IMG/VR virus record: IMGVR_UViG_3300033412_000498
Span: 1 to 27,595 of that record
Strand: one strand, 5' to 3'
DNA length: 27,595 nucleotides
Origin: a virus
Taxonomy: Duplodnaviria; Caudoviricetes
Shown piece after piece: positions 3,346 through 27,595 of this stretch. The position numbers and the translations under genes are program-made. Position 1 is the first letter of the stretch; every line of letters begins with the position of its first letter. The notes under the pieces are model-generated. The model made no database searches. It was not told the DNA's origin and was given only the letters and a program-made list of their open reading frames with translations.

Positions 3346-3363
3346 ACTCTCTCCGTTCGTAAG

Positions 3364-3418
3364 CCGGGCCGTGTGTCCGAGGGTTGTGTGGGCCCTCTTG
3401 GATGGACACACGGCCCGG
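3364..3418. terminator. Intergenic stem-loop (terminator or processing site)
   Basis: Perfect 15-bp inverted repeat CCGGGCCGTGTGTCC / GGACACACGGCCCGG with an inner GAGGG/CCCTC stem. Confidence 0.6.
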
Positions 3419-3421
3419 TGC

Positions 3422-4012: not shown

Positions 4013-4086
4013 CTCAGACCACCGTCATCCGTTAGGCGTAACGGTTGCAGCACAACGACGTTACGGGGGTCACGGCCATGAATCGC

Positions 4087-4554
4087 TTACCGAGAGGGCC
4101 TCATGTCTGCCGGAGCATAGTCAGCGACGTGGCGGCCATCCTCCTCATCGCCATCGCCATCGGCCTGCTCATCGTGGGCACTCTGTGGCTCATCAGGTGG
4201 TTCTACGGATAGCGGCGTGACCGCGACGTAGGCGTCGATGAACGGGCCCATGAGACGCAGAGGCAGGGACACATACCAGTCCTCGGCCCGGCCCCGGCCC
4301 ACTCGCTTGTGAACGAGGATGCCGGTACGCCACCTCGACCGCACGACCTGGTCGGCCATCTCGTCGACCGCCTCGGCGAGGTGGATGCGGGCGTGGTTCT
4401 TGATACTCACCACGAACGGCAACCCCCGTACGTCGCCCGTGTCGGTGCGCTGCCTCGACGTGGTCCTCGGCCGCCACACGTAGTACCCCCGGGCGGTGAG
4501 CCATGCCACGACCATCGCCTCGGCGACGTAGCCCTTGCGGGACGCCCGGCTCAC
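4087..4554 (-). CDS. Holliday junction resolvase-like PD-(D/E)XK nuclease
   Basis: GTGA-coupled start; KG-x3-E...D-x-GD-x2-G...SIKN...HKR..G..W pattern of actinophage resolvases; acidic tail overlaps an antisense ORF. Confidence 0.75.
   Translation of the reverse strand: MSRASRKGYVAEAMVVAWLTARGYYVWRPRTTSRQRTDTGDVRGLPFVVSIKNHARIHLAEAVDEMADQVVRSRWRTGILVHKRVGRGRAEDWYVSLPLRLMGPFIDAYVAVTPLSVEPPDEPQSAHDEQADGDGDEEDGRHVADYAPADMRPSR
4129..4212 (+). CDS. 27-aa antisense single-pass micropeptide (44 aa if started at ATG 4078)
   Basis: MAAILLIAIAIGLLIVGTLWLIRWFYG; -10-like CATAGT 7 nt before the GTG (leaderless geometry). Confidence 0.5.
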   Translation: MAAILLIAIAIGLLIVGTLWLIRWFYG

Positions 4555-4787
4555 GTCTTGCCCGCCCGTGCCTTGAGGAGGGCCGTGGACGCTTTGGCGT
4601 AGAGGGCGAGGCTGAGCATCGCCACCACGTGCCGACCGTCCTCCAGGCGGACGAGGAGGGCGACCGAGGGAACGCCGTCGACCGGGGCGACCAGGCCGAT
4701 CCTCTCCACGTCCCCGAACGGTGGATCGATGACGTCGGCCCACGGGTCGTCGAGGAGGTCGGCGGTGACGGTGAGGGTGTCGCTCAT
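4551..4787 (-). CDS. Hypothetical phage protein (78 aa)
   Basis: ATG after GGAGG SD; MSDTLTV...PSVALLVRLEDGRHVVA; stop overlaps the resolvase start. Confidence 0.7.
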   Translation of the reverse strand: MSDTLTVTADLLDDPWADVIDPPFGDVERIGLVAPVDGVPSVALLVRLEDGRHVVAMLSLALYAKASTALLKARAGKT

Positions 4788-4849
4788 GGGTGTCCTCCAC
4801 AGTGGAAACAGTGGTTGGTCCCCAGGGAGGGGGACGCTCTCGATGGTCC

Positions 4850-5173
4850 TCACCCGAGGTACCTCAGGGCGATGATGATGGCCCCGACGCCCGCCACCAT
4901 GAGGACGCTCACGATGGCGAGGACGGCGAGATGGTCGACCCGGTCGGCCGTGTCGTACGTGTCCCGCTCGATGGCGTCGAGACGCTCCTCGACGCTCTTG
5001 GTCCACTCCTCGGTGAGCCACCTCAGGTGGCCGTACACCGACCAGACGAGGTCGTCGGTGCTCAGGTCGAGGGGCGAGGCCGACACGGGCCGGTCGTCCT
5101 CGACGGGCACGACAGCTAGCCCCGGGACGAACTCCTCGGCCGGCGTCTCCACGGTGTAACGCTTGCGGGTCAT
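4850..5173 (-). CDS. Coiled-coil protein with C-terminal TM helix
   Basis: MTRKRYTV..., GAGGAGG SD, ATGA coupling; ends LAVLAIVSVLMVAGVGAIIIALRYLG. Confidence 0.75.
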   Translation of the reverse strand: MTRKRYTVETPAEEFVPGLAVVPVEDDRPVSASPLDLSTDDLVWSVYGHLRWLTEEWTKSVEERLDAIERDTYDTADRVDHLAVLAIVSVLMVAGVGAIIIALRYLG

Positions 5174-5502
5174 ACTTCCTCCTCGGATCGAGGGCCCCCA
5201 CACAGGCCACACAGGGTCGAGACGGCGTCGGGGCCGTACCGGACGACCGGGCCCCGGCACAGGGCGCAGGGACCGTTTGGGCGGGCGGGTGGGGCCTCGA
5301 AAACGCGGTCGACCCCCAGGGCCCGCACGATGAGGTGGACGGCCTCCCGCTCGGTCGGCACCGGGCCCCGCTCGAACGGGGTCGAGGCGTGACCGAGGCA
5401 CAGGCCCCGCGAGCTCGCGAGGTCGGCCTCGACGGCCCACACCGTGGCGGCCGAACACTTGCGGCACCGCCGGGTGGCCCGGGTGAGCACGAGGTGTTTC
5501 AC
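5170..5502 (-). CDS. Putative Zn-binding protein
   Basis: GTGA-coupled to the primase stop; CxxC, CxxH, CxxC, CxxC motifs. Confidence 0.7.
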   Translation of the reverse strand: MKHLVLTRATRRCRKCSAATVWAVEADLASSRGLCLGHASTPFERGPVPTEREAVHLIVRALGVDRVFEAPPARPNGPCALCRGPVVRYGPDAVSTLCGLCGGPRSEEEV

Positions 5503-9667: not shown

Positions 9668-10196
9668 GGCGTGAGTCCTTCCCCCGCGAGGACCCACACA
9701 GAGGAGAGGTTTACGCCCACGGGGCGAGGCCCGCAACTGGCCTCTACGACCACTACTGAGGCCCCAGGGACACCCGGTGACGGGTGAGGTGAGGGCACCG
9801 AACACGAGAGGCCGTCGCGTCCCCCAGGACCCCGAGACGTGGCAACGGTCGGAGGCTCGTCCACCGTGGACGCGACGGCCCCGTCATCGAGGGCGGTGAC
9901 CATCGACAAAGACTCATCGAGATTGTCGGCCGACCACCGGGGGCCCAGGGCAACGGTGGGTGACTCGTTTGCGGCGTGCCATGCCTCGGTTCCCCCGGCC
10001 CCCCGGTGGGGCCTCACCTCGGTCAACGAGGCCCCGACCCAGGTGGTCACGGGCCGCGTCGGGGCGACGGGCCGGTCGTTGGGCAGGGTGCCGGGGCCGT
10101 CAGTCAGACACCCCCGGCGGGGCCGCCGACGCGGCCCGGAGAGGGCGAGCGGGGAAGCGACACGCCCCGTGTCAGTGGTCCCCCCGCTCGCCCTCT
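9668..10196 (-). other. Apparently non-coding, highly structured leader or control region
   Basis: Stems 9671-9679/9689-9697 (covers the SD), 10008-10035, 10050-10062/10126-10138 (13 bp) and 10140-10154/10182-10196 (15 bp); 17/20 direct repeat at 9841-9860 and 9949-9968. Confidence 0.5.
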
Positions 10197-10286
10197 TGCC
10201 CTCGCTCGGACCCACTTACCACGTGAGTTGGTGCCTCCCCTTAGGGGGCCCACAAGGGGTGGGCAAGGGGGCAAGTGCGCAAGTGG
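10195..10286. repeat. Iteron-like putative origin, copy 2 (inverted relative to copy 1)
   Basis: Reverse complement of 10212-10286 aligns without gaps to 5604-5678 at 53/75 by hand count, including CCAACTC-NN-GTGGTAAGTGG. Confidence 0.7.
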
Positions 10287-10438: not shown

Positions 10439-10579
10439 ATGACGACCACCTACCTCATCGCGGGCCTCTGTGCCACGGCGGTCCTCGGGGCCGTCGTGGC
10501 GGCCCTCGCCGCTCTCATGTTCGACCACCCCACCTCGACCACCCCGACCGACCCGACCGCCCAGGAGGACCCCTTATGA
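10439..10579 (+). CDS. 46-aa single-pass membrane peptide coupled to the integrase
   Basis: MTTTYLIAGLCATAVLGAVVAALAALMFDHPTS...; stop overlaps the integrase ATG (ATGA). Confidence 0.55.
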   Translation: MTTTYLIAGLCATAVLGAVVAALAALMFDHPTSTTPTDPTAQEDPL

Positions 10580-12150
10580 CCACCTCGACCGCCATCGACT
10601 ACACCGCCGACATCGCCGCCCTCGTCGCCGAGCTCCGGCTGAGGGACACCGACCCCGCCTACGCCGACGCCCCGGTGTTCGACGTCTACGCCCGCATCTC
10701 CCGCCTCGCCTCCTCCCACGACGAGGAGAAGACGCCCCGACAGGTGGCAGCGTGCCTCAAGAATCTCCTCGGCCGTCACGCCCGCCTCGGCGAGGTGCAG
10801 GTCGACAACAACCGCTCGGCGTGGAAACTCGTCGGCGGCAACCGGCCCGCGTTCGAGGCGATGCTCGTCCGCATCGAGTCGGGGGCGGTGCAGGGCGTCC
10901 TGTGCTGGCACGTCGACCGACTCGCCCGTCAACCGTGGGACCTCGAACGCCTCCTCCGTCTCGTCCTCCAGCGTCGCGAGCGGGAGGCGTTCCTGGTCGC
11001 CTCGTGCCACGGCGACCACCTCCTCTCGAACGTGTTCGAACTGAGGATGAAGATGATGTTCGCGGCCCAGGAGAGCGAGGCTAAGTCTCGTCGTATCCGT
11101 GACCTCAACGCCCGACGTCGTGAGGCGGGCGTCCTCGTCGGCGGGGCGTCAGCGTTCGGCCACCGCAACGAGGGTGAGCTCATCTCCGACACTCAGCTAG
11201 CGGCCGAGCGGGACGCGGTGGCGTGGGGTATCCGGGCCCTCATCGCGGGACGGTCCCTCGGGTACGTCGCCCGGGAGTTCAGCACCCGGGGCCTCCTCAC
11301 CCGGCGGGGGGTGGCGTTCAACGCCCTCAACGTCCGCTCGTGCCTCTACCTCGCCCGGCACGCGGGCCTCATCGAGCACGAGGACGAGGAGCTCCGGCCG
11401 ATGCGCAACGCCGACGAGGTGGCCATCGTGACCCGCGATGAGTTCCTCGGCCTACGCGCGATGTTCGCCGCCCGGGAGGGCACCAAGGGCCGTACCCCGG
11501 GCGACCGGGCCCACTTCCTCTCGAACCTCATCCGGTGCGACGGGTGTGGCCGGGGCATGAGCGGGTCGACCATCAACACGTGGCTCGACGCCGACGGTAA
11601 CGCCCGTCGGGTGTACCGGTGCCGGCCGCAGAACTGCCGGGGCGTGAGCGTCGACGCCGACGTGGCCGAGGAGTGGGCCCGGGTGGCCGTGGTGGGCATC
11701 CTCGCCTCCCCCGACCACGCCCGGACCATCGCCCGCAAGTCGCGTCGGGTGGCCGAACTGGAGGCCGACATCGAGCGGGCCGAGTCCCGGGTCGCCCGCC
11801 TCATGGGACTGGGCCGGGTCAACCCCGACCGGTTCGAGTTCTACGCCGAGCAGGCCGAGGTGTTCGAGGCCGACCGTCGCAAGGCGGTCGAGGAGCGTGA
11901 CGCCCTCGTCGCCGCCGGGGCGGGCCGCACCGCCCGGGCCCTCACCGAGGCCGACCTCGAACGCGAGTGGGCCGAGGCGACGCCGGCCGAGCGTCGGGCC
12001 CTCACCGCACAGGCCCTCCCGGAGGGGTTCCACGTGGCCCGTACGGGCCGGGCCGGGGCGAGGTGGGCCGACCCCACCCGACGGTTCGCCGTCCCCCGTG
12101 GCGTCGCCACCGCCCGCCTCGCCGAGGAGGCCCGCCCCGCCTGCCCGTAG
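10576..12150 (+). CDS. int: Large serine recombinase (phage integrase)
   Basis: YARIS catalytic motif, D...SAW..RPAFEAML, WHVDRLAR, recombinase domain, LSNLIRCDGCG...YRC..C Zn ribbon, coiled coil; AGGAGG SD. Confidence 0.95.
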   Translation: MTTSTAIDYTADIAALVAELRLRDTDPAYADAPVFDVYARISRLASSHDEEKTPRQVAACLKNLLGRHARLGEVQVDNNRSAWKLVGGNRPAFEAMLVRIESGAVQGVLCWHVDRLARQPWDLERLLRLVLQRREREAFLVASCHGDHLLSNVFELRMKMMFAAQESEAKSRRIRDLNARRREAGVLVGGASAFGHRNEGELISDTQLAAERDAVAWGIRALIAGRSLGYVAREFSTRGLLTRRGVAFNALNVRSCLYLARHAGLIEHEDEELRPMRNADEVAIVTRDEFLGLRAMFAAREGTKGRTPGDRAHFLSNLIRCDGCGRGMSGSTINTWLDADGNARRVYRCRPQNCRGVSVDADVAEEWARVAVVGILASPDHARTIARKSRRVAELEADIERAESRVARLMGLGRVNPDRFEFYAEQAEVFEADRRKAVEERDALVAAGAGRTARALTEADLEREWAEATPAERRALTAQALPEGFHVARTGRAGARWADPTRRFAVPRGVATARLAEEARPACP

Positions 12151-12164
12151 TCCCACCGACCGTT

Positions 12165-12209
12165 GACGACCGGGTCACCTCTCCCCCCTCGGGAGGTGGC
12201 CCGGTCGTC
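12165..12209 (+). terminator. Stem-loop downstream of the integrase
   Basis: GACGACCGGGTCACCTCTC pairs with GGGAGGTGGCCCGGTCGTC (19 bp, two G-U pairs). Confidence 0.7.
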
Positions 12210-12292
12210 CCGCGTGAGGGTAGCGGAAACGGCCCTGAGCGGCCCGTACGCGGCCGAGGATGGAGCGGGGTGGGTAGTGGACGGGGGAGACG

Positions 12293-12931: not shown

Positions 12932-12967
12932 GGTTGTCTCCCTACTCAGTTGTCGTTGCACGCGCGT

Positions 12968-13585
12968 CTAGCCTGGCGCGGTTGCCGGGAGCATTTGCAC
13001 GGCCATCCAGTGAACAGTGACGCTCGTCGTACTAGACGTGGCGTCTATCTGGCGAACGTTGGCGGTGAATCCGGTCGTGCTGATAGAGGTCGGCGTAGCG
13101 ACATAGCTCGTGCTGGAAACGCTCGTGGTAACGACCATCGGTGGCTGTGTGAACCGTCCCCCGGTTAAGTTGACAGCGACTGAACCAGTAATGGACGCGG
13201 TCACCGCGACAACGGCGGTACCGACCTGCATAGCGAACGGCATCGGACGTACTGTGCCGTTGCCCGCAACCTCGACTGTTACCCGGCCGTCCTCCCAGAC
13301 GAGAAGTTCCGACATCGTGGCCCCGGCACTATACGTTGTCACGGCAGCGGCTTGACCCGCACAACGAAAAGCATCCTCTTTCGCCGTACCCGAAACAATT
13401 CGACGCACCTTAAACGCCCAACCGTTAGGCGTCGTCGGGTCACCGACCATCATGTGTCCATTAGGGACGGTAATGCCGTTCTTCCATAGCTCTAGTTTGT
13501 CGGCGAGTGCCTTGACGTCCCGGGGCACGTCGACAGTAGACGCCGCGTCGGGGTAGGGCAGACCGTAGAAACTCGTTGCTCCCAT
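12968..13585 (-). CDS. Minor tail / receptor-binding protein (lower GC)
   Basis: N-terminal T..YGLPYP...DVPRDVKALA typical of actinophage tail fibres; C-terminal beta-sandwich (H-lectin/gp53-like) RFTQPPMV...TGFT...WMAVQ. Confidence 0.8.
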   Translation of the reverse strand: MGATSFYGLPYPDAASTVDVPRDVKALADKLELWKNGITVPNGHMMVGDPTTPNGWAFKVRRIVSGTAKEDAFRCAGQAAAVTTYSAGATMSELLVWEDGRVTVEVAGNGTVRPMPFAMQVGTAVVAVTASITGSVAVNLTGGRFTQPPMVVTTSVSSTSYVATPTSISTTGFTANVRQIDATSSTTSVTVHWMAVQMLPATAPG

Positions 13586-13600
13586 TAGCTTTCCTTTCCT

Positions 13601-14650
13601 CTACCCGCCCGCTGTCGACGGTGTCATTTGCACGGCCGTCCACGTCAGGGACACGGCGGCCGCGAACGACCCGGTAGCCGTGGAACACACAAGGGTGCAC
13701 CCGGTCGGCGAGTTGGATTCGACCCGGGCCGCATAGACGCACCCGCCGTCTGTTGTGGACACCGACACGGTGACGACCGGTGCGACGCTGAACTTGCCGA
13801 CCGGATAGGTGACCGTCGCCGACACCGAAGCGGGTGTGTCGTACGTAGCCAACGTGGACGACGTCGGTAGGACCGCGACCCCGGCGGACATGGCGTAGGG
13901 CGGGCCGGGCGGGCCCTGGACACCTTGGGGGCCCTGCGCACCGGCCGTCCCCGGGTCACCCTTGAGACCTTGCGGCCCGGTCGTACCCGCCGGGCCCTGG
14001 GTACCGGTGTCGCCCTTGAGCCCCTGTGGACCTGTCGCCCCTTGTGGACCCTGCGCACCCGGGCTACCCGTCGCCCCCTGCACACCCGGGTCACCCTTGG
14101 GGCCTTGCGCCCCGGTCGTACCCGCCGGCCCCTGTGTGCCGGTCGCACCCGCCGGGCCTTGCGTGCCGATGTCGCCCTTGGGTCCCTGGGCACCGGTCGT
14201 GCCGGTGTCGCCCTTGAGGCCCTGGGCACCCTGCACACCGGGGTCACCCTTGGGGCCCTGCGCACCCGTGGCCCCGGCGGGCCCTTGCGGGCCGGTGTTG
14301 CCCGTAGGCCCCGGTGTCCCCTGTGGCCCTTGCGGACCCGTCGCCCCGGGCGGCCCCTGTGACCCGGTCGCCCCAGCGGGGCCCTGTGGACCCTCTGGGC
14401 CGGGAGGCCCGTCACCGCCTCCCGCCGACGTACCCACGAGGCCGATAGCTATCACACTGTCCCGGTCGAGGAGGACCGTAACCGTGGCACCGACGGTGGC
14501 GGTGAACCCACCCAGAGGCACCCCGTCCATCGGGCCGCCCGGGAGCATAACGTCGAGTGTGGACGCATGCACGGCGATGACGGTGCCTGTGCGCATGATG
14601 ACGGCCCGCTCGTTGCGGGCGTACGGGTAGACGTCCTCCGGTCGGGTCAC
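13601..14650 (-). CDS. Collagen-repeat tail fibre/spike
   Basis: N-terminal OB-like GTVIAV...IAIG, 57 uninterrupted G-X-Y triplets, C-terminal lectin-like domain KFSVAPVV...WTAVQ. Confidence 0.88.
13898..14410 (-). repeat. Collagen G-X-Y coding repeat
   Basis: 57 consecutive triplets ([12 protein letters not shown] and similar). Confidence 0.95.
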
Positions 14651-24921: not shown

Positions 24922-26316
24922 CTAGTAGACGGCGACCCCGGCCCCGTCGTCGTGTTCGAGCGACCAGAGGGCGGCCGTGGCGGCGATGAGTTGGGTGGGC
25001 GGGGTGGCCGTCTTCCTCGACCACACCCAGCCCGAGCCGGTCGGGGCCGAGGTGGCCGCCACGGCGTCGGCGACGAGGGCCGGCACGGCCGCGAACGTGA
25101 CGGTGCCCTCGGCCACCCGCTGGGCGAGGTTGGCGCAGGCCGAGGGATAGTCCCCGTACTTCATCGGGAGGAGCTCGACGTCGTGGTCACGGGCGGCCCG
25201 CTCCATCAGGTCGAGGATGTTGCCCCGGGCGTCGTAGGCCACCCCCCTTGGCTCGTAGGCGGACGAGATCTCACCGAGGCGGTCCGGGAGCCACCCGGCC
25301 CCCGGGCGGGCGTCGACGGGTACCAGGACGGCCCGACCGTCGTCGCCGTGGTAGGCCGCACACAGGGCGGCCCCCGAGCGATCCCACGCCGCGTCCACTC
25401 CCCACCCGATCGGCCGGCCGTCGGTGGGCGGGGGTGGCACCGGCACGGTGAGCCGGTTCACCGCCTCCTCGTCGAGCACCGTCTCGGCCGCCGTCTCCGA
25501 CCACACGCCGAGTCGCTCCCGCATGAACGAGCGTCGGCTCATCGAGACCAACTCCCGCTCGACCCCGTCAGCGAACAACCGACGGCCATAGGCGGGGTTG
25601 GTCGCGGCGTGGATGCGCGGGTCGCGGTGGTCGACCGTCTCGTCGGCGTGCCACTCCCAGTACGCCATCCGATCGGCCCGTCCACTGTGGCCACGGCGAC
25701 GCAGGCCGAGGAGTACCTCAGATTCGTACGTGCCGGCCGAGGAGAGGTACCACACCTGAGGGTTAGGCCGGGCCGCCACCGAGGGAATGAGGGCGGCCAT
25801 AACGTCGGCCGAGAGGGCGAACGCCTCGTCGAGGAGGATGCAGTCGGGCGAGAAACCACGGCCCGAGGTGCGGGTGCGGGCCATCATTTTGAACCGGGCC
25901 CCGTTGTGGAACTCGATCACCTCGCCGCCGGCCATCGTCCTGATGCGACGGACGTGGCGGGCCATCGCGTCGGACTCGCACACGTCGCGCATGAGACGCC
26001 ACGTCTCCTGGGCGGTGCGGTACTCGTGGGCCGAGTAGATGACCAACTGCTCGCCCCAGAGGAGGATGCCGGCGAGGGCCCGGATGACGACGAGGTAGCT
26101 CTTGCCGTTCTGCCGGGGCACGATGGCGCACACCTCGAACGCCGACCACTTGGAACCCCGGGTGCGGGCCGCCTCGGTGACGACCTCGCCCTGCCACGGG
26201 TCGAGGGGGAACGAGAGGGCGTCGGCGAGGACCAGGGCGTCACGGTCGACCCGCCCCGAGGGGAGGACTCTCGTGGTGGCCCGTTGCGAGCCGAGGAGCT
26301 CAACCGTGCCGGGCAC
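24922..26316 (-). CDS. terL: Terminase large subunit (start approximate)
   Basis: LDPWQ, IVPRQNGKS (Walker A), ILLDEA (Walker B), YLSSAG, ATNPA, RERLG, WGVD nuclease domain. Confidence 0.95.
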   Translation of the reverse strand: MPGTVELLGSQRATTRVLPSGRVDRDALVLADALSFPLDPWQGEVVTEAARTRGSKWSAFEVCAIVPRQNGKSYLVVIRALAGILLWGEQLVIYSAHEYRTAQETWRLMRDVCESDAMARHVRRIRTMAGGEVIEFHNGARFKMMARTRTSGRGFSPDCILLDEAFALSADVMAALIPSVAARPNPQVWYLSSAGTYESEVLLGLRRRGHSGRADRMAYWEWHADETVDHRDPRIHAATNPAYGRRLFADGVERELVSMSRRSFMRERLGVWSETAAETVLDEEAVNRLTVPVPPPPTDGRPIGWGVDAAWDRSGAALCAAYHGDDGRAVLVPVDARPGAGWLPDRLGEISSAYEPRGVAYDARGNILDLMERAARDHDVELLPMKYGDYPSACANLAQRVAEGTVTFAAVPALVADAVAATSAPTGSGWVWSRKTATPPTQLIAATAALWSLEHDDGAGVAVY

Positions 26317-26560
26317 GGCGTCGCCGCCGGTCGAGGAGCTCATCGACGGCCCCAGGGGGCGGCCCAGAATCCACGCTCGCGGCCGAACGGGCCACCCGCC
26401 GTGCCTCGGCCCGGGCCGACTCGTCGAGGGCCTCCAGGCGGGCCACGGCGGCGAGGTAGGCCCGCACGAGCGGGAGGCGGTCCCTGAGGCGGGTCGCCTC
26501 GTTCACCTCGTGGCTCAACCGCCCCACGAGCCTCGCGAGCTCCTCGCGGTTACCGCTCAC
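26300..26560 (-). CDS. terS: Terminase small subunit
   Basis: Between HNH and terL; helical; ends VDELLDRRRRR as in actinophage small terminases; GTGA-coupled. Confidence 0.7.
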   Translation of the reverse strand: MSGNREELARLVGRLSHEVNEATRLRDRLPLVRAYLAAVARLEALDESARAEARRVARSAASVDSGPPPGAVDELLDRRRRRARHG

Positions 26561-26820
26561 CACGAGTCGGCCCGCCACGTCGAGGGCACCGGGCCGGCAC
26601 CCCGCTCGGAGTTGCACGACCGGTGGGCCGGCCGGCCGTTGCCGACCTCCCACCGCCTCGACGGGTCCACCGAGGTCGGGGTGAGGTGGTCGACGGTGTC
26701 GGCCCCGGGCCGCCCGCACAGGTGGCAGGTGCGGCCGTACGCCTCGAACACCGCCGCGTCGTAGGCGGCGACGTTGGGCCCGTTGACCGGGCGACCCTGA
26801 GGGGTGGCGGTGCGTCCCAT
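26557..26820 (-). CDS. HNH endonuclease (packaging-associated)
   Basis: CHLCG...DTVDH..P...N..PAHRSCNSERG; directly upstream of the terminase genes. Confidence 0.92.
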   Translation of the reverse strand: MGRTATPQGRPVNGPNVAAYDAAVFEAYGRTCHLCGRPGADTVDHLTPTSVDPSRRWEVGNGRPAHRSCNSERGAGPVPSTWRADSW

Positions 26821-26827
26821 GAGGACA

Positions 26828-26862
26828 AGGGTAGGCCCGCTGACTGGTCGACCAGTCAGACT
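26828..26862. promoter_or_regulatory. Divergent leaderless promoters around a perfect 20-bp palindrome
   Basis: CTGACTGGTCGACCAGTCAG (26840-26859); minus-strand TACCCT 7 nt before the HNH ATG; plus-strand CAGACT 6 nt before ATG 26869. Confidence 0.6.
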
Positions 26863-26964: not shown

Positions 26965-27039
26965 GTGAACCGTCCATTCACGTTCTTCACGCTCAGACTG
27001 ACGGTGGCTCGTTGGTCGCGGGCCACCCCCACCACACAA

Positions 27040-27110
27040 GGGCGGGGCCGGGGCGGGTGTCTTGGCAGATGCAACCCCGCGCGTGCCCCTCACGGGCCCC
27101 GGCCCCGCCC
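27040..27110. terminator. GC-rich inverted repeat (terminator or packaging-region structure)
   Basis: Perfect 15-bp GGGCGGGGCCGGGGC / GCCCCGGCCCCGCCC between convergent genes. Confidence 0.55.
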
Positions 27111-27168
27111 CCGGTAAGGGGAGGTGTCACCTCACGGTACGACCACAGAGGACGAGGCCACACCGGTA

Positions 27169-27188
27169 ACCCGCATTACGGTGCGTCG
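27169..27188. repeat. Direct repeat copy A (dif-like site)
   Basis: ACCCGCATTACGGTGCGTCG; 19/20 identical to 27418-27437. Confidence 0.8.
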
Positions 27189-27379
27189 GCTGGTCCGTCG
27201 TAGTACAGGTCCGGTCGCCTCACATTGCCAAGCTGATCACGCCCACACGCGGGGCAATACGGTGGCCCGCCATCTCGGTGTTGAACCAGTCGATGCTGGC
27301 CAGGGCACAGTTCATCGATGATGGCGTTCAGGTGATCCCGCGCGGCCTCGTAGCGCTGCTGGGCTTTGGCTAGGTCCAT
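27176..27379 (-). CDS. Small Cys/His protein in a repeat-flanked, lower-GC cassette
   Basis: MDLAKAQQRYEAARDHL...CPGQHRLVQHRDG.PPYCPACG...DAP; TAGTCT -10-like hexamer 5 nt before the ATG. Confidence 0.7.
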   Translation of the reverse strand: MDLAKAQQRYEAARDHLNAIIDELCPGQHRLVQHRDGGPPYCPACGRDQLGNVRRPDLYYDGPADAP

Positions 27380-27389
27380 ACCCAAGACT

Positions 27390-27439
27390 AACGACCGAGC
27401 ACATAAGCGGGCGTATGACCCGCATTATGGTGCGTCGTT
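27390..27439. repeat. Bulged hairpin containing direct repeat copy B (attC/dif-like)
   Basis: AACGAC-cga-GCAC-ATAA-GCGGG-loop-CCCGC-a-TTAT-g-GTGC-GTCGTT. Confidence 0.7.
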
Positions 27440-27586
27440 GAAAAGCCAGTCCATTACGTCGCGCTGCCACTCCGTGACCTTGACGTTCATGGCGGCTAAG
27501 AGCGCTTCAATCGTGTCCGACCTGGAAGGCGACCACCGCGCGGCGTCATCGTCGCGCTCCCAGTCATCATCATCGTCGTCATCCAT
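27425..27586 (-). CDS. 53-aa acidic hypothetical protein (may extend beyond the window)
   Basis: Manual ORF MDDDDDDDWERDDDAARWSPSRSDTIEALLAAMNVKVTEWQRDVMDWLFNDAP; its stop lies in repeat B. Confidence 0.55.
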   Translation of the reverse strand: MDDDDDDDWERDDDAARWSPSRSDTIEALLAAMNVKVTEWQRDVMDWLFNDAP

Positions 27587-27595
27587 GCGCTGATC

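Follow-up and report, generated by a model that had tools for sequence, protein, structure and literature searches.

An actinomycete tyrosine recombinase that has its own site on a mobile element is exemplified by MrpA and mrpS of the Streptomyces plasmid SCP2*. The comparison with the system described here is one of role; the pair receives mention in PMC4685060. Single-recombinase Xer systems are a second point of comparison. As treated in the relevant portion of PMC5357621, XerS/difSL, XerH/difH and XerA/dif share with a family of Micromonosporaceae host sites, reported below, an 11-6-11 near-palindrome (two 11-bp arms around a 6-bp centre) near the terminus and one Xer-like gene. Unlike those systems as portrayed there, the Micromonosporaceae unit adjoins a canonical dif, and the phage copies are incomplete and lie on a record without a recombinase. 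The chromosomal dif of Actinomycetota has the TAA-N6-TTA core and the 28-bp layout that are also found in phage site A, to judge from the sections of PMC3025954 used here. In the rows taken from its dif supplement, CGATAA...TTATGTCA is in register in six of seven and shifted in the seventh. Site A agrees with the Frankia alni dif at 10/28 positions, counted by eye.

The pdif/dif modules of Acinetobacter plasmids, in the excerpts available, hold accessory DNA between dif-like sites while the recombinase is encoded elsewhere. The phage locus is similar in this respect, but it comprises a single unit, its sites are in direct orientation with the same centre, the arms are not of the XerC/XerD kind, and the carrier is a tailed actinophage. 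IMEX (CTXphi attP(+), TLCphi and the GGI) likewise combine one simple junction with one that is self-complementary or degenerate, according to the passages cited from PMC3089051 and PMC5357621. There, the sites of TLCphi and the GGI are conserved in the centre and one arm and have diverged in the other arm (PMC3089051, PMC5357621); in CTXphi, two complete dif-like sites about 90 bp apart fold into a 150-bp hairpin (PMC3089051). Measured against the CTXphi fold as given in that part of PMC3089051, phage site B is different, being 50 nt long and folding into a single arm duplex with 5-6 further bp and a loop. In contrast to IMEX, the cargo here is a 249-bp gene unit rather than a replicon.

Integron attC sites are imperfect palindromes with extra-helical bases that lie downstream of small genes (10.1101/030866 and PMC8946536, both in part), and site B shares these features. 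Compared with integrons as described there, however, the phage locus has no IntI and no array, site A is not a hairpin of this kind, and the boxes are not spaced as in attC. In the cited portion of one genome survey, complete integrons are reported absent from the Actinobacteria genomes surveyed (10.1101/030866).

The Phage Genome

The window, by which we mean the whole stretch of DNA analysed, is the complete 27,595-bp record IMGVR_UViG_3300033412_000498 and holds a temperate tailed phage of 69% GC. It is a soil actinophage. The record encodes a serine integrase (10576-12150), a primase, a Cas4-like exonuclease and head and tail genes, and has HNH and terminase genes at its right end on the minus strand. 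The HNH endonuclease gene (26557..26820, minus strand) is the first conserved gene past a variable slot, and is followed by the probable small terminase gene and then the large terminase gene (24922-26343). By terminase, the GenBank relatives are actinophages at 30-35% identity; one relative with terminal repeats is 28,653 bp long.

In two relatives (L015 and L083), a lysin gene and small genes equivalent to the set at 200-2600 of the window run on to the HNH gene; for L015 the search was made without composition filters and was mostly noise, so that the lysin and small-gene matches alone were kept, and the lysin was confirmed. Given this gene order, the record is probably nearly complete and broken within the variable small-gene slot. 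Contigs from metagenome runs extend 25-153 bp beyond position 27595, and there is an assembly of 27,697 bp. Two relative contigs start with GCTGAGA, and a third starts with TGAGA behind adapter-like sequence, in each case just upstream of the slot; these starts may mark the physical left end of the genome.

Prophage relatives in GTDB have terminases that are 25-32% identical at best, therefore host assignment is not possible by this route. The phage integrase found one match, at 29%, in 201 Micromonosporaceae genomes, and the lysin found none among GenBank phages. A profile search of the record for tyrosine recombinases (PF00589) gave no match, in keeping with the original prediction. A 400-aa tyrosine recombinase is present in one of five relatives.

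Two other features of the genome may be recorded here. A 205-aa gene at 12968-13642, of lower GC and with a weak H-type lectin match, follows a collagen-like fibre gene. The two genes end in a similar 43-nt stretch (12967-13009 and 13600-13642), which suggests from the sequence a swappable C-terminal module. At 26843-26862, a perfect 20-bp palindrome closely precedes the -10-like box of the HNH gene; other inverted repeats take its place in relatives.

A Direct Repeat around a 249-bp Unit

Near the right end of the window, a 20-bp direct repeat is found on the minus strand at 27418-27437 (the upstream copy, consisting of an arm and the 6-bp centre) and at 27169-27188 (the downstream copy). The copies are 19/20 identical and 249 bp apart and, as had been reported before, two minus-strand ORFs end in DAP* inside them. 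When the collagen-like gene is excluded, this is the genome's only repeat of such quality at a distance of 120-700 bp, and Markov simulations produced one in 0/25 genomes. No third copy with up to four mismatches was found in the phage. The inserted DNA starts with the reverse complement of the repeat. The 249-bp unit has 61% GC compared with 69% for the genome, placing it in the lowest 4% of 249-bp windows; the small genes at 348-479 and 732-884 are equally low (58-61%). 

The upstream copy overlaps gene B (27425..27595, minus strand), which encodes a small phage-type protein and has its stop codon inside site B. Gene B is 61 aa in a longer assembly (P0152), with its start 15 nt outside the window, and its Atlas neighbours, at 0.95-0.96, are all hypothetical proteins and, if assigned to a taxon, viral. 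The unit itself contains a 67-aa gene (27176..27379, minus strand) of the widespread CPGxH..QHRDxxPPWCxxC family. There are 147 matches to this family, in which the Cys and His residues are invariant, and the protein is likely to bind zinc. Neither Pfam nor PHROG gave a match for it, and its Atlas matches are all below 0.9. The two closest homologues (77-79%) diverge ahead of the repeat-encoded end. In 34 viral loci that encode the family, repeat-like flanks were found in none (best 20-mer match 13-15/20), and many of the viral homologues overlap the start or stop codons of their neighbours.

A TANNNT hexamer, TAGTCT (27385..27390, minus strand), stands 5 nt ahead of the 67-aa gene's ATG, where the gene had been proposed to carry its own -10 box; it is a predicted leaderless promoter. 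The HNH gene of this phage, like that of three relatives, also has a TANNNT 6-7 nt before its start. Downstream of site A, a G+C-rich inverted repeat (27036..27112, minus strand) is a possible terminator, and its folding was not significant in the part examined.

Each copy of the 20-bp repeat is followed, after 27-29 nt, by a TANNNT hexamer with GGTCG in front of it. This arrangement favours a reading of the repeat as a protein-binding control motif, such as an operator or part of a promoter, next to accessory genes and not as a crossover point. Near-identical GTAA-N6-TTAC sequences between divergent genes in two host genomes (L374 and L376) would fit such a role, although the L376 match is estimated to be about what chance gives in 251 genomes. 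At up to four mismatches the motif is also confined to these two copies in the phage; it was not found in relatives and has no evident gene downstream of its copy in site A. We consider a control motif improbable.

Two Unlike Sites

Each copy of the repeat overlaps a larger site. Site A (27159..27186, minus strand) has the 11-6-11 layout with the core GTAA-N6-TTAC, and its right arm is degenerate relative to the host family. It reads as originally described, with inverted arms around the 6-bp spacer TGCGGG, and is the only TAA-N6-TTA in the window, where about 0.06 would be expected from the TAA and TTA counts. Its folding is at the level of shuffled sequence (z 0 to 0.5), and its arms pair through 4+4 bases only, with a one-base offset.

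Site B (27390..27439, minus strand) is a 50-nt bulged hairpin. Its left arm (27435-27425) is followed by the centre TGCGGG (27424-27419) and, further on, by the distal arm (27406-27396), so that the arms are 18 bp apart. The 18-bp centre holds an inverted copy of five bases of the spacer. Site B has TCA at the place of TTA and hence no 11-6-11 with TAA-N6-TTA, the layout that is found in site A. The fold agrees with the earlier description of three bulges (C, T and TCG) and closing AAC...GTT, and gives z -4.85, with 0/200 shuffles as good. Three further hairpins in the genome are about as strong or stronger, namely 3361-3420, 10141-10200 and 12151-12210 (z -7.5, -5.3 and -4.5). The arm that pairs with the repeat in hairpin B is provided by the insert. 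A modelled junction of the left flank of A with B still folds, with z -3.3 or -1.8 depending on the choice of crossover. A sigma-70 scan marks CATAAT within B as a possible -10 box.

The Slot in Related Phages

Has the 249-bp unit entered by a route that is also seen in relatives? In seven relative loci with terminases 67-72% identical, similarity is lost upstream of the HNH promoter and the site is absent; no close relative carries it. The gene content of the slot differs between lineages. A precise empty site, of the kind that a cassette would leave, was sought in these relatives and not found, the slot being too diverged there to show one.

Direct repeats of at least 18/19 identity and 120-700 bp apart were surveyed at 99 terminase loci, some of them on the same record, over 157 kb upstream and 344 kb downstream; they occur upstream in five loci and downstream in one. 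L083 has a 19/20 direct repeat (4769-4788 and 4902-4921) around a 133-bp non-coding unit with a strong hairpin. In L085/L013, from a related phage, the slot contains a 61-aa gene on a 261-bp unit, on either side of which lies a 41-nt repeat (L013:810-850 and 1071-1111; 83% identity, with 18/19 in a 19-nt core). The L083 and L085 repeats are unrelated in sequence to that of the window and do not fold. Separately, a 1.3-kb two-gene insert is present in L015/L016 (L015 ~4075-5385) and absent in L017 (~740); one of its genes matches phrog_4899, and CTGAC stands at both borders.

Because unrelated short repeats occur in the same slot of close relatives, gene capture by short homology stays a strong rival. 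Under this explanation the 67-aa gene is an ordinary moron, which entered a slot near the left end together with its leaderless promoter via short homology and left the 20-bp repeat behind; hairpin B would be a terminator-type stem-loop, and its likeness to a host arm chance. The 1.3-kb insert and the lineage-specific slot genes agree with this, as do the position of hairpin B over a stop codon, the presence of comparably strong hairpins elsewhere in the genome, the possible -10 box within B, and the 34 viral loci of the gene family without such flanks. We regard moron capture as a serious possibility, with roughly one chance in three of being correct. It leaves two features unexplained, however: the repeat consists of a recombinase arm and a family-like centre, with TTA correctly spaced in A, and its reverse complement stands at the start of the inserted DNA.

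An 11-6-11 Site Family in Micromonosporaceae

Do bacterial genomes contain sites with the same arms? A scan with the two arms of B returned 47 mostly AT-rich matches, among which there is one intergenic 11-6-11 site, in a prophage record of 72% GC (L209). It is the only TAA-N6-TTA of that record, which has no PF00589 match. This lone site (L209:1499-1526, genome G711), with family-type arms, lies between accessory ORFs and a head protease gene. L440 has a lone intergenic site with the same arm pair in an accessory region.

Applied to 251 Micromonosporaceae genomes, a search pattern derived from the phage sites (GCACCRTAA-N6-TTA) found 42 matches, distributed over 32 genomes; its reversed control found 26. 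Unpublished genomes (G475 and G623) account for two of the 42 rows and are used for no other claim. An ATAA/TTAT core is common to 20 of the 29 loci examined, with centres that are mostly TGACAG, TGACCG or TGACGG, and several of these sites are perfect palindromes. The resulting family, GCACCATAA-N6-TTATG, numbers 23 sites in 22 of the 251 genomes (20 loci and three rows without a locus). In L397-L416 and L447 (G557, G528, G426, G438, G647 and others), the single-copy palindrome GCACCATAA-N6-TTATGGTGC and its variants lie opposite dnaA. All five complete chromosomes have one exact site, at a distance from dnaA of 48-52% of the chromosome length; the canonical dif is 27-87 kb away. Five further genomes have the family site 34-57 kb from dif in three cases, and on a separate contig in the other two.

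A Xer-like recombinase gene is present within the fetched region at 8 of the 20 family loci. In L411, a 332-aa Xer-like ORF starts about 166 bp from the family site; six other copies, 70-83% identical to it, lie 3-9 kb from their sites. The partial recombinase proteins are fitted best by XerC/XerD models, below the cut-offs. A Streptomyces plasmid homologue of the L411 ORF, 42% identical, has its own palindrome with the centre TGACTG directly upstream; among three plasmids such a palindrome is present in one and absent in the other two. Judged by sequence and position, the palindrome and the 332-aa Xer-like gene are a candidate second, single-enzyme Xer system beside dif, which may resolve dimers or receive insertions. 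In the wider phylum, 12 of 301 genomes gave family matches versus one in the control; since most of these are low-GC or coding-like, the family is not shown beyond Micromonosporaceae chromosomes. The literature searched, to which subscription papers contributed little, holds no account of such sites in actinophages or of a second Xer unit in Micromonosporaceae.

Other sites of similar form were seen in the same genomes. All five complete genomes (L433, L436 and L437, with G426 and G557) have another ATAA-N6-TTAT site 200-920 bp from the canonical dif, with the centre GGAATA, GGTATA or CGGATA; the three that were viewed are a near-perfect palindrome, TGCATAA-N6-TTATGCA. A recurrent ATAA-GTCCGG-TTAT (L445) lies ~30-34 kb from dnaA in three of the five (G557, G528 and G438). 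At the host site in L403, two TAA-N6-TTA sites (9088 and 9300) share a GCGGCATAA arm and are 212 bp apart. They are possibly transposon ends; those of RIT transposons were considered for L368 and L403. A match in L434 lies inside a transposase-like reading frame and was treated as chance.

Fit of the Phage Sites to the Host Family

The left arm of B is identical at 11/11 positions to arms in L447 and L381, and that of A differs by one change, a match that is partly circular and post hoc in that the search pattern was derived from the phage sites. Taken together, the left arm, the first six centre bases and the distal arm of B are identical to L390 at 23/28. The centre TGCGGG, which was outside the search pattern, scores P 0.03-0.04 when one orientation is allowed and 0.06-0.08 when both are, and agrees with L390 at 5/6. 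In the 15 loci viewed, the arm of B matches this kind of site (and L440) at best at 9-11/11; for the other three kinds the figure is 4-7/11. As the five complete genomes contain only 23 ATAA-N6-TTAT sites in total, of about four recurrent kinds, a chance match of the five outer bases is estimated to be of the order of 2%.

The second arm does not follow the family. Neither the right arm of A (P 0.9) nor the proximal right arm of B (P 0.69) fits, and the distal arm of B, with P 0.12, is 18 bp away. No TTATG.. stands exactly 6 bp from the first arm; A has TTAC and then no fit, and in its inner arm the A of the family is replaced by G. Both phage sites are incomplete: the right arm of A is off-family, and the arms of B are 18 bp apart.

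These comparisons support the view that the repeat is part of a tyrosine-recombinase site. The original description of the sites as Xer/dif-like holds to this extent, by way of the Micromonosporaceae family, but not for the arms of XerCD/dif: canonical actinobacterial dif arms (..CGATAA / TTATGTCAA..) are not matched, with the left arm of B agreeing at 5-7/11 and site A at 9-13/28.

Cassettes and Arrays

The original prediction went further and proposed an integron-like system in which the folded single strand of site B is the substrate and a host tyrosine recombinase collects cassettes in arrays. The strong bulged hairpin closing in AAC...GTT is in favour of this proposal, as is the modelled A-B junction, which still folds and to which the insert supplies the pairing arm. 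Site B alone folds as an imperfect palindrome in which extra bases stand out of the helix and the spacer is unpaired; the window has this one hairpin and no array of like ones, site A not being such a hairpin, and the record has neither an IntI-type integrase with attI nor any PF00589 match. Moreover, the Xer-type arm in folded B faces the loop, with no partner arm there. The outer boxes of attC have the consensus RYYYAAC/GTTRRRY, with spacers of about 5 and 6 nt. Those of B agree with it at 6/7 and have spacers of 4 and 7 nt; the caution expressed earlier that the R boxes are not canonical attC was justified.

Further copies or arrays, anticipated under the cassette proposal, were not found in the collections scanned. 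An 18-mer scan of the viral collection gave one match, inside an unrelated ORF, and a metagenome scan gave the window and 16 single unrelated matches without the B fold. Another scan for exact or gapped copies gave 10 unrelated loci of 39-47% GC. With two mismatches allowed, 7 of 401 Actinomycetota genomes matched, once each, versus five control matches, and a copy scan of 301 phylum genomes gave none. A blastn search against phages and plasmids returned nothing meaningful. Contigs assembled from four runs of near-identical DNA, a form in which rare variants are dropped, contain no empty site, circle junction or joint across the unit.

The hairpin was also searched for as a covariance model (R1), a weak one built from site B alone as two identical rows; it found nothing beyond chance. 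In 151 family genomes there were six matches at E<=0.05 per genome, which equals the chance expectation; 98 other sources gave none better than E 0.19, five relative records gave nothing, and Rfam had no match. The best host match to R1 (L185/L190), in 1 of 151 genomes, resembles the distal half of B at 24/29 nt (E 0.0045) and was judged to be chance. Among the 116 loci (61 distinct sites) of a copy scan, only L293, which is the same as L209, exceeds 65% GC. Hybrid-like sites with the left arm of B and the right arm of A (L279, L283 and L305) are about what 61 tries give; L283 has 54% GC and lacks a second copy. Another match, L176, falls where an unrelated host gene begins.

The analysis found neither a third copy nor an array, and neither an empty site nor the geometry of attC; the integron reading fails on every point that could be tested, and an integron-like cassette system is very doubtful.

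A Proposed Single Capture by a Borrowed Recombinase

How, then, did the 67-aa gene enter the phage? Because the repeat matches a host half-site, the gene is likely to have been inserted once by a borrowed host enzyme. We infer that this type of recombinase has worked on the phage, that the host is a member of the Micromonosporaceae or has DNA in common with them, and that the repeat marks a crossover. Our preferred reading, tentative and at slightly less than even confidence, is that the repeats are the worn remains of a Xer-type site at which an enzyme of the host, not encoded in the phage record, inserted the 249-bp unit once.

In this scheme, a tyrosine recombinase supplied in trans would have acted once at a family-type site. 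A 249-bp circle would have been inserted, leaving the arm and centre on both sides, and the sites would later have decayed or have been imperfect from the start. Hairpin B would most likely now serve as the 3' stem-loop of gene B, ahead of the leaderless promoter. Such a capture would be like that of a single dif module of the pdif type and unlike that of an integron. What is seen so far amounts to one degenerate event, not to a system.

A more general version of borrowed-enzyme capture can be imagined, in which phages take up single genes via the second Xer-like system near dif and a circle with a self-complementary site is captured as a folded single strand, as in CTXphi and integrons. We think this unlikely.

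Implications

To our knowledge, the way in which phage genomes acquire small accessory genes has for the most part not been explained. Insertion of the 67-aa gene by a Xer-type enzyme of the host, if it took place, would be capture resembling that of dif modules in a tailed actinophage. As a candidate enzyme, of the L411 type, and its site can be named, the idea is directly testable. If folded-strand capture were true, it would provide a cassette route in a phylum that is reported to be without complete integrons. The conserved unit of recombinase and palindrome beside dif in Micromonosporaceae may matter as much.
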